Made by a program: the position numbers
Part shown: positions 55,101-58,100 of the stretch, one piece after another
How the letters are laid out: each line of letters starts with the position of its first letter
How positions within the stretch are numbered: the stretch's first letter is position 1
NCBI RefSeq assembly: GCF_050320075.1
Contig: NZ_CP190018.1
Strand: one strand, 5' to 3'
Origin: Escherichia coli
GTDB lineage: Bacteria; Pseudomonadota; Gammaproteobacteria; Enterobacterales; Enterobacteriaceae
DNA length: 64,000 bases

Positions 55101-58100
55101 TATGCCGACCGAATGGGTACATACTCTGCTTAAACCATGGAACTTCTTTGACGAAACGCCAACGCTAGGGGCGATAAAGAAAGATAAGTGATTGTTTCAG
55201 ACTAAAAAAACGGCACCTGGTGCCGTTTTTTACTTATGCGCGAACCAGATTAATACCGTACACACACCGACTTGGTTTCACACCAACCGTCCAGCCAGTC
55301 CGGGCCAAAATCACGGCCTGTTCCTGACTGCTTCATCCCACCAAACGGTAAGTTAGCGTCAATTAAGGTATGACTGTTTACCCACACCGTACCTGCCTGT
55401 AAGCGATCGCTATATTCCAGAGCCTGGGAGAGATTTTGCGTCCAGACGCTGGCAGTTAAGCCATATTCCGTGTCGTTTGCCAGTTGTAACGCCTCTTCTC
55501 CATCCGCTACACGCACCAGGTTAACCACCGGACCAAACACCTCTTCACGAGTTAAGCGCAATTTAGCATTGGGATTTACCACCAGCGTTGGCGCAACATA
55601 ATATCCCTCTCCGGCAGGTCCACTCGCCCCGCGAATCAGCTCTGCTTGCTGTGCCTGCGCATCGTCAAGGAATGAACGCACTTTGTCGCAATGCGCACGA
55701 GAAACCAAAGGGTTAATCTGTGCAACAGGTGACATCCCCGGTCCCACTTGCAACGATTTTACCGCCTGCTCAAATCCACTAACCAGCGTGTCAAACAACG
55801 GCGCTTCAATATAAATTCGCGAACTGGCGGCGCATACTTGCCCCTGATTCAGGAAACTTCCGGTCATCAAGCCTTCAATAACCCATTGCGGATCAGCATC
55901 TTTTAATACAATTGCCGGGTTTTTACCGCCCAGTTCCAGCGTTACACGCGTCAAGCGATCAGCAGCAGTTCTGGCAATACCTTTGCCCGTCGCGGTTGAA
56001 CCGGTAAAACTGATTTTCGCAACATGAGGATGTGACGTCAGGGCCGCGCCGCATACAGAACCTGACCCGGTGACCACATTAAAAACGCCATCAGGAATAC
56101 CTGCCTCGCTGGCCAGTTCCGCCACGCGCAACATAGTCAGTGGCGTGGTTTCCGATGGCTTAATCACGATTGAACAGCCTGCTGCCAGTGCTGGCATCAC
56201 CTTCCACATGCCAATCATCAACGGAAAGTTCCATGGCACAATTCCCGCTACCACGCCAACCGGCTCTTTACGCGTCCAGGCCTGATAACGCGCCCCCTGG
56301 GGTAAGGGAATCGACAAGTCCAGCGTTTTACCCGCGATTTTGGTCGTTAACCCGGCGGTATAACGCATCCAGTTCAGCGTACAGCCCACTTCAAAAGCAC
56401 GGGAAATAGCAATTGACTTACCTTGCTCCAGGGTTTCCAGCTGTGCCAGCTCCTCACCGTGCTGTTCCACCAGATCGGCAAAACGTAGCAGGATACGTTC
56501 ACGCTCTGCGGGTAATCGCCCGGCCCAGCGACGCGAGACAAAGGCCCGCCAGGCAGACATGACCGCGTTATCTACATCCGCTTCGTTGGCATCAACAGTT
56601 GACGCAATTTCTTGCCCGGTGGCCGGATCAAAGATCGCCAACCGTTTTTCACTTTGTGCGGGGCCAGGACGACCATCAATATAAAGACCGTGTTGACGAT
56701 CGAGAAACTGTTGGACCTGGCTTAATACTGCTACATGCGGCTCTGTCATCACTTTTCCTTATTATTTACCCAGTGTGATTTCAGTGTACGCAGCGACAAG
56801 AAAAGTCACTTTTTTCGCTGTGACATTCGCTTTGTCAGCTGTGACAAGCTCCGCAAATCGTGACAATAACCGCTTATGTCTCTATGCCTGACAAGACTTA
56901 TTTCCTATAGTCAGGCTCATTAGCTTCGTTTATTGCAACACAAATGCAACAATAAAAATACATTTCACAGAGCGAAAACGTGCCATGAACCCCGCAGTGG
57001 ATAATGAGTTTCAGCAATGGCTTTCCCAAATCAATCAGGTATGCGGAAATTTTACCGGACGCCTGCTGACTGAGCGTTACACGGGTGTACTGGACACGCA
57101 TTTTGCCAAAGGACTAAAGCTGAGTACCGTGACAACCAGCGGGGTGAATTTATCCCGCACCTGGCAGGAAGTAAAAGGCAGCGACGATGCCTGGTTTTAC
57201 ACCGTTTTTCAGCTTAGTGGTCAGGCAATAATGGAGCAGGATGAGCGTCAGGTGCAGATTGGCGCTGGCGATATTACGTTACTCGATGCCTCACGCCCCT
57301 GTTCGCTTTACTGGCAGGAGTCTTCTAAACAGATTTCATTACTTTTACCACGCACTCTGCTGGAACAATATTTTCCCCATCAAAAACCTGTCTGCGCAGA
57401 AAGACTGGACGCTGACTTACCTATGGTGCAACTCAGTCATCGCCTGTTGCAGGAGAGCATGAATAACCCGGCACTTTCTGAAACAGAAAGTGAAGCTGCG
57501 CTACAGGCGATGGTGTGTCTGCTTCGCCCGGTACTTCATCAGCGGGAATCTGTTCAACCTCGCCGTGAACGTCAGTTTCAAAAAGTGGTTACGTTGATAG
57601 ACGATAATATTCGCGAAGAGATATTACGCCCGGAGTGGATAGCCGGAGAGACAGGTATGTCAGTACGTAGTTTGTACCGAATGTTTGCCGATAAAGGTTT
57701 GGTGGTCGCGCAATATATTCGTAACCGTCGTCTCGATTTTTGTGCTGATGCGATTCGCCATGCCGCAGATGATGAAAAACTGGCAGGTATTGGCTTTCAT
57801 TGGGGATTTTCCGATCAGAGTCATTTTTCAACGGTATTTAAGCAACGCTTTGGGATGACGCCAGGCGAGTATCGACGTAAATTCCGCTAACTAATTCGCG
57901 TTGCATGTACAGCAACGCGAATTAGTTAAAACAGATATTTGACTATGCATTTTTCAGGGCGAAAGGCAATTTGACAGGAATTTTTGAATATTCACCTTGT
58001 TTCCGGAAAATAGAATAATCGCCTTCTCCTGTAGCGTTATCCCGATATTGCGGTTTTGCTATTAAAATTTTCGCACCCATTTACCGTTTATCCCTTGTAC

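Follow-up and report, generated by a model that had tools for sequence, protein, structure and literature searches.

The spacer between the convergent genes feaR and ydbL of Escherichia coli contains a long perfect palindrome that may serve, in both directions, as a shared protective 3' stem-loop for the Rho-terminated transcripts of feaR and of ydbH-ynbE-ydbL. This reading is put forward tentatively, at slightly less than an even chance. It rests on the stability of the hairpin in either RNA, on the absence of a U-tract, on the retention of the stem with paired changes among E. coli genomes, and on a region of Rho-dependent termination that lies beyond the hairpin in strain K-12.

Position, structure and fold of the palindrome

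Direct inspection of the sequence of the window (the whole stretch of 64,000 nt that was analysed) confirmed an inverted repeat of two 17-nt arms, which are 100% complementary and enclose a loop of 7 nt (Table 1). An earlier note on this DNA had described a perfect stem of 14 bp with a 7-nt loop at positions 57891-57925; the repeat was real, but the length was too short, as these 14 bp form the inner part of the 17-bp stem. The three outermost pairs join the feaR stop codon TAA (57888-57890) to TTA at positions 57926-57928. The genes are convergent, as the note had said, with feaR on the + strand and ydbL on the - strand, and 133 nt separate the right arm of the palindrome from the ydbL stop codon; ynbE and ydbH come after ydbL in the locus. 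The feaR-ydbL region of the window is 96.5% identical to that of MG1655 and 100% identical to that of strain CFSAN061763, the window being of a non-K-12 E. coli.

Among hairpins with a loop of 3-10 nt, the palindrome is the longest perfect one of the 64-kb window. The longest perfect stem in each of 100 first-order Markov simulations of the window measured 8-12 bp, and the length of the palindrome is far above chance expectation. The calculation of RNA folding energy, proposed earlier as a check, was carried out and yielded about -25 kcal/mol on either strand: the minimum free energy of the 41-mer was -24.9 kcal/mol (+ strand) and -25.5 kcal/mol (- strand), with z-scores versus shuffles of -9.6 and -8.0, respectively. 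When flanks were included, the hairpin reached -25.9 kcal/mol (+ strand) and -30.9 kcal/mol (- strand), and all z-scores ranged from -6.6 to -9.6. The hairpin also dominated the fold of the whole-spacer RNA in both orientations, and on the - strand the stem extended to about 21 bp via flanking CUGU/GCGG pairs. The arms are symmetrical, being A/U-rich on the outside (UAACUAAUU...AAUUAGUUA) and GC-rich on the inside, with six G-C pairs among the upper eight of the stem, so that the stem-loop is as stable and GC-rich as that of an intrinsic terminator.

Table 1. Coordinates of the features in and around the feaR-ydbL spacer, given as positions in the window
Feature	Positions	Strand	Remarks
tynA	52882-55191	+	convergent with feaB
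Bidirectional terminator common to tynA and feaB	55205-55231	both	AAAAAACGGCAC-ctg-GTGCCGTTTTTT; textbook
feaB	55250-56752	-	
feaR	56985-57890	+	CDS; AraC-family activator of tynA and feaB; stop codon inside the stem
Rho termination zone of ydbL-direction transcripts	approx. 57700-57887	-	antisense to the feaR 3' end; probable position, from K-12 data in 800-nt windows
Left arm	57888-57904		TAACTAATTCGCGTTGC; begins with the feaR stop codon TAA
feaR-ydbL spacer	57891-58061		171 nt; single-copy; no mobile-element match
Covarying pair, left member	57897		pairs with 57919; only covarying pair
Loop	57905-57911		ATGTACA
Right arm	57912-57928		GCAACGCGAATTAGTTA
Covarying pair, right member	57919		pairs with 57897
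ydbL	58062-58388	-	CDS; last gene of ydbH-ynbE-ydbL; 3' UTR of 133 nt before the palindrome

Rho-dependent termination beyond the hairpin

The 8 nt past the full stem, AAACAGAT on the + strand and GCGGAATT on the - strand, contain only 1-2 T. A terminator scan with a threshold of 5 or more T among the 8 nt that follow the stem, which fits the tynA/feaB terminator, did not call the palindrome site for want of a U-rich tract, in agreement with the earlier observation that a strong U-tract is lacking.

Published data on K-12 place a region of Rho-dependent termination beyond the hairpin. Supplementary file 2 of Adams et al. 2021 (PMC7815308) lists such a region at MG1655 position 1446501, on the + strand and antisense to feaR, with a Rho score of 4.03 (p = 1.3e-5) and upstream/downstream reads of 54/14 in untreated cells and of 87/91 with bicyclomycin, as measured over 800-nt windows, in K-12 only and here in the ydbL direction only. 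A match in K-12 strain RP437 located the hairpin at about 1446336-1446380. This location is consistent with the feaR coordinates in K-12. Hence the Rho peak lies about 120 nt beyond the hairpin in the ydbL direction (K-12; 800-nt windows), and probably corresponds to about position 57765 of the window. As the downstream and upstream reads with bicyclomycin were 91/87, the hairpin does not stop transcription in the ydbL direction once Rho is inhibited. The Rho-independent termination expected of an intrinsic terminator was not found in these published K-12 reads, which cover the ydbL direction only. The earlier view that the palindrome is no classical intrinsic terminator was thus upheld by the absence of a U-tract and by the full read-through that bicyclomycin restores in the ydbL direction (K-12, PMC7815308); intrinsic termination activity at the palindrome is weak at most. 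No feaR or ydbL 3' end occurs in Supplementary files 1 and 3 of Adams et al. or in the TRS and TERMITe supplements, which is uninformative, since expression of both operons was low in the conditions of these studies. On the - strand, stretches of 100-400 nt downstream of the hairpin have a C/G ratio of 1.25-1.5; on the + strand, the ratio is 0.94 for the nearest 100 nt and 1.2-1.35 for stretches of 200-400 nt. This bias of C over G is mild, and usual for the antisense of a coding sequence.

A hairpin with these properties resembles a known class of 3' ends. In E. coli, the ends of Rho-dependent transcripts coincide with stable stem-loops that lack a U-rich tail, give protection against PNPase and RNase II, and have rut sites downstream; REP elements make up 24% of these protective stem-loops (Dar and Sorek 2018, PMC6061677). 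The feaR-ydbL hairpin is likewise a stable stem-loop without a U-rich tail or an upstream A-tract, with Rho termination downstream in the ydbL direction (K-12, 800-nt windows). It shares with that class a location in a 3' UTR upstream of a bicyclomycin-sensitive region, it may share a downstream excess of C over G, mild as this is, and it is not a REP element. It differs from the stem-loops of Dar and Sorek in its stem of 17-18 perfect pairs, which is above the typical terminator-like length, and in that the palindrome is common to two convergent units and overlaps a stop codon. Moreover, steady-state 3' ends were mapped for the latter stem-loops, whereas the feaR-ydbL hairpin is known from its sequence and from Rho-region data. 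Among the roles proposed earlier, that of a bidirectional stabiliser is the best supported, though indirectly, by this fit to the Dar and Sorek class.

A protective stem-loop would act as follows. Transcripts of feaR (+ strand) and of ydbH-ynbE-ydbL (- strand) would both carry the palindrome at their 3' ends, where it would fold into a very stable stem-loop of 17-18 bp without a U-tract. RNA polymerase would mostly pass through the hairpin, and, in the ydbL direction at least, Rho would end transcription about 100-200 nt beyond it, within antisense feaR. PNPase and RNase II, both 3'-to-5' exonucleases, would trim the unstructured tail down to the base of the hairpin, which would block them, so that the mature 3' end would be set and stabilised. 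Because the DNA is perfectly palindromic, one element would serve both transcripts. Three parts of this are inferred: mature 3' ends at the hairpin, a halt of the exonucleases at its base, and the occurrence of the same process in the feaR direction.

Variation of the palindrome within E. coli

The 45-nt element was present in 4343 of 5426 complete E. coli genomes, at one locus per genome, the two places matched in each record being the same site read on both strands, and the palindrome was absent from about 20% of the genomes, among which that of the B2 type strain. In the latter strain, the feaR side is replaced leftwards from about position 58000, and one has to go about 325 nt past ydbL to reach the nearest hairpin that resembles a terminator. 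The common forms of the element are told apart by the bases at positions 57897/57919. Leaving out about 195 of the 4343 hairpin-bearing genomes, which carry other variants, these are a C-G form with loop ATGTACA, which is that of the window (880 genomes); a G-C form with loop ATGTACT, which is that of K-12 (1403 genomes) and has 18 bp, a 5-nt loop, and a folding energy of -27.7 kcal/mol; a G-C form of which the top pair has become U.G on the + strand (1327 genomes); an A-T form (129 genomes); and a form with a C.C mismatch in the middle of the stem (409 genomes). Every common form keeps the hairpin, at -21 to -30 kcal/mol.

Fourteen of the 17 pairs are invariant, two carry a one-sided change that results in a G.U wobble on the feaR-sense RNA, and one shows covariation (C-G, G-C, and A-T, plus one mismatch), with a score that was reached by 21 of 500 shuffles. 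In an alignment of eight strains (A1), three of the 34 stem positions were variable, and the stem varied at least as much as the remaining spacer. Deletion of an arm was seen in one of the 5426 genomes, namely that of strain 21319, in which feaR is a pseudogene; 15 nt of the left arm are lost there and the fold is abolished. As far as can be read from the genomes, these forms show that pairing was restored after change within E. coli. Restored pairing fits both selection on structure and templated quasi-palindrome correction, and the pattern does not separate them, as paired changes can arise from templated mutation without selection (PMC5941160). The occurrence of the C.C mismatch in the middle of the stem in 409 genomes indicates that any constraint is loose. 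This mismatch, the dispensability of the hairpin, and a stem diversity that is not below that of the spacer count against a protective stem-loop.

Origin of the spacer and persistence of the palindrome

The feaR-ydbL junction was compared with that of other genera through FeaR homologues with 66-82% identity from Pseudocitrobacter (two species), Pluralibacter, Raoultella, Enterobacter, and four metagenomic Enterobacteriaceae contigs. A FeaR search of genome contigs provided five loci, which were supplemented via protein homologues and their contigs; P0002 and P0006 were E. coli-type sequences, and the FeaR cluster at 90% identity listed E. coli only. In all nine non-Escherichia loci, the stop codons of the convergent feaR and ydbL abut with zero spacer (e.g. 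TGA/TTA), and neither the palindrome nor the 171-nt spacer was found in any of these loci, so that the conservation across Enterobacteriaceae for which the earlier note had asked does not exist among them. The Kluyvera feaR locus has a different neighbour gene. The abutting stop codons indicate that the 171-nt spacer is specific to the E. coli lineage, and the absence of the palindrome from about 20% of E. coli and from other genera indicates that it is dispensable and young. Spacer and palindrome might represent an E. coli-specific insertion that parted abutting genes and created a new 3'-end/insulator module, of which the allelic series would record two-way quasi-palindrome correction, although this scenario is held with considerable doubt. 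In such a correction series, C.C would occur on two backgrounds, G-C and C-G would be its single-step products, and A-T would be a further paired form.

The main alternative, possible though on balance doubtful, is that the palindrome is a functionless relic that came with, or arose in, a segment of 171 bp inserted in the E. coli lineage between stop codons that formerly abutted. Intrastrand template switching during replication, by which one arm of a quasi-palindrome is corrected after the other, would then have kept it perfect instead of selection. Apart from its absence from the nine non-Escherichia loci and its dispensability in the E. coli lineages that lack it, the pattern of variation speaks for such a relic, including a polymorphism of the stem that is not below that of the spacer. 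Indeed, two distinct flanking haplotypes carry the C.C mismatch, and the G-C and C-G forms, each of which would correct it in a single step, are both present, as bidirectional templated correction predicts; furthermore, the A-T form and a C-G form have a common left flank, indicating that the double change was fast. In addition, the non-coding regions of E. coli contain about 150 times as many long perfect inverted repeats as expected, for which a template-switch mechanism has been proposed (Lavi et al. 2018, PMC5941160). The feaR-ydbL palindrome resembles the repeats of that work and of quasipalindrome mutagenesis (PMC7202029) in being long, perfect, and non-coding, in the paired changes of its arms, and in the coexistence in the population of the mismatched state and both 'corrected' derivatives. 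However, this work describes a mutational process and not a function, and the action of that process at feaR-ydbL is not demonstrable from sequence alone. Template switching accounts for the perfection of a palindrome, but not for the location of one of 41 bp at an exact gene boundary; a site at a stop codon and in a 3' UTR, upstream of a Rho region, is where functional stem-loops occur; and loss of an arm was restricted to the single feaR-pseudogene strain mentioned above. The relic and the protective stem-loop are compatible with each other, as maintenance and function are separate questions.

Possible intrinsic termination at the palindrome

A weak bidirectional intrinsic terminator or pause site is an unlikely explanation. 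It would require that the GC-rich upper stem (CGCGUUGC/GCAACGCG) has formed before the A/U-rich lower arm (AAUUAGUUA) leaves the RNA-DNA hybrid, whereby a fraction of the polymerases would be released both ways, possibly aided by head-on polymerase collisions. The bidirectional terminator of tynA and feaB provides a comparison within the same locus. Like this terminator, the feaR-ydbL palindrome lies between convergent genes, is symmetrical, folds on both strands, and has A/U-rich outer arms around a GC-rich inner part, which is the layout of a bidirectional terminator. The difference resides in the U content, which at feaR-ydbL is 1-2 in 8 past the full stem and rises to 4 in 8 in the tail past the 10-bp core stem (UUAGUUAA). 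Even so, the palindrome falls short in its U-tract, and the two tail positions that adjoin the 8-bp GC-rich upper stem are A. It also departs from a canonical bidirectional terminator in that termination in the ydbL direction is Rho-dependent in K-12 and that the scan made no call. The bicyclomycin ratio further indicates little Rho-independent stopping at or before the region in the ydbL direction in K-12, and no Term-seq 3' end is listed at the site, the operons being weakly expressed.

Other candidate identities

The earlier note had also considered a protein-binding palindrome. A DNA operator for a dimeric regulator, with PaaX, a GntR-family protein that represses the neighbouring phenylacetate genes, as the one candidate tested, is very improbable. 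The palindrome is a perfect dyad that adjoins the aromatic-amine and phenylacetate catabolic cluster, and the PaaX box has TGATTCGYG, similar to TAATTCGCG in each arm. The PaaX consensus WWTRTGATTCGYGWT is validated by two exact matches between paaA and paaZ, at positions 50382-50396 and 50567-50581, but the arms of the palindrome each have three mismatches to it, and matches with at most three mismatches occur at chance level (36 observed versus 36.0 expected). Moreover, the variable position of the stem falls on the C of the TTCG core, with G instead in K-12 and A in other strains; its identity changes and its pairing is kept, which fits structure and not base-specific recognition. The site is also located at the 3' ends of genes and not at a promoter, and it is absent in other genera with feaR and paa genes. 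Processing by RNase III, which would cleave the duplex and destabilise the transcripts instead of protecting them, is equally improbable. In its favour, few terminator-like hairpins have a perfect duplex of such length, which is greater still on the - strand; against it, a stem of this size barely reaches the minimum for RNase III substrates.

As to repeat families, the feaR-ydbL palindrome is, like REP/BIME elements, an extragenic palindrome in a 3' UTR and a potential exonuclease block, but it is single-copy, lacks the REP consensus, and has no match to Rfam or to a repeat family. REP, ERIC, another repeat family, and a mobile-element end were rejected, as the palindrome is single-copy in E. 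coli genomes; the one other similar E. coli site was a weak, decayed match near yafP (E = 8). Within the window, no copies of the arms occur beyond the two arms themselves. A search of Rfam at a permissive E-value returned only a plant miRNA model (28.6 bits versus a gathering score of 90) and noise, and comparison of the spacer with plasmid and phage collections returned only E. coli chromosomal DNA filed under those labels. A replication terminus (Ter) was rejected too: the arms and the Ter core GTTGTAACTAA have TAACTAA in common, and the preceding four bases, compared by eye, all differ (CCGC versus GTTG).

Significance

The feaR-ydbL palindrome is an ordinary kind of element, most likely a 3'-end hairpin of a routine sort. 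It probably matters little in practice, because many E. coli strains and all related genera manage without it. The locus is nevertheless of modest value for telling exonuclease protection apart from termination, as a hairpin without a U-tract and the textbook tynA/feaB terminator lie 2.7 kb apart. In addition, thousands of genomes show one stem pair as matched, as mismatched, or as matched anew, an allelic series that may be used to ask whether it is selection on RNA structure or templated mutation that maintains perfect palindromes in bacteria.

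Remodelling of the feaR region in E. coli

The region around feaR has been remodelled repeatedly among E. coli strains (loci L002, L003, L004, L014, and L008). In many strains a deletion has fused paaX or paaY to an internal point halfway along feaR (L002, L003, L004, and L014; equivalent to approximately window positions 57640-57690); what remains is a pseudogene of the feaR C-terminal part, and the palindrome is undamaged. In B2 strains, all DNA to the left of approximately window position 58000 has been exchanged for AT-rich DNA (junction in L008), which adjoins a large autotransporter adhesin gene. 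The hairpin itself is abolished in E. coli strain 21319 (L014 2440-2560), which has lost 15 nt (TAATTCGCGTTGCAT) and with them the greater part of the left arm. The feaR gene of this strain was already a truncated pseudogene, and the arm deletion was the sole case of its type seen (1 of 5426 genomes).

The feaR-ydbL spacer across genera

The 171-nt spacer between feaR and ydbL (window 57891-58061) is restricted to E. coli, whereas the stop codon of feaR directly abuts that of ydbL on the reverse strand (TGA|TTA, for instance) in all nine loci from other genera of the Enterobacteriaceae (L016-L018, L020-L022, L024, L025, and L028). Compared with these loci, the YdbL protein of E. coli is longer by one C-terminal residue (F). 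The spacer ORF (Table), a reading frame only, overlaps the 3' end of ydbL in a different frame.

Neighbouring and similar elements

The convergent genes tynA (ending at 55191) and feaB (ending at 55250) are separated by a gap of 58 nt that holds a bidirectional terminator, a useful contrast to the feaR palindrome, which has no U-tract. The PaaX operator consensus is matched exactly at two sites, both in the divergent paaA-paaZ intergenic region (50377-50624).

Features located in the window and in strain 7/2
Feature	Sequence	Position	Strand	Location
45-codon ORF (reading frame only)		window 57943-58080	-	within feaR-ydbL spacer
Bidirectional intrinsic terminator of textbook form	AAAAAACGGCAC-ctg-GTGCCGTTTTTT	window 55205-55231		gap between tynA and feaB
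PaaX operator consensus, exact match	WWTRTGATTCGYGWT	window 50382-50396	-	
PaaX operator consensus, exact match	WWTRTGATTCGYGWT	window 50567-50581	+	
Imperfect palindrome	TACTTCAAGTTGC-ATGTACT-GCGACTCGAATTA	L013 1485-1545		strain 7/2 of E. coli, flanked by yafP and RtcB-family pseudogene

Compared by eye, the palindrome of strain 7/2 shares about 31 of 41 positions with that of feaR, among them the loop of the K-12 type, and has a folding energy of about -19 kcal/mol (z = -4.8); its BLAST E value is 8, in 28 Gb of highly redundant genomes. This element could be a decayed second copy of the feaR palindrome, or the resemblance could be a coincidence. A gene-truncation boundary adjoins it.

Divergent haplotype with the C.C mismatch

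Locus L027 (GCA_025847755.1; equivalent to window 57850-58090) represents a divergent E. coli-type haplotype, in which feaR contains a frameshift and YdbL is shorter, at 99 aa. It carries the C.C mismatch form of the palindrome on flanks that differ from those of the main C.C clade, which suggests that the mismatch either arose long ago or has arisen repeatedly.
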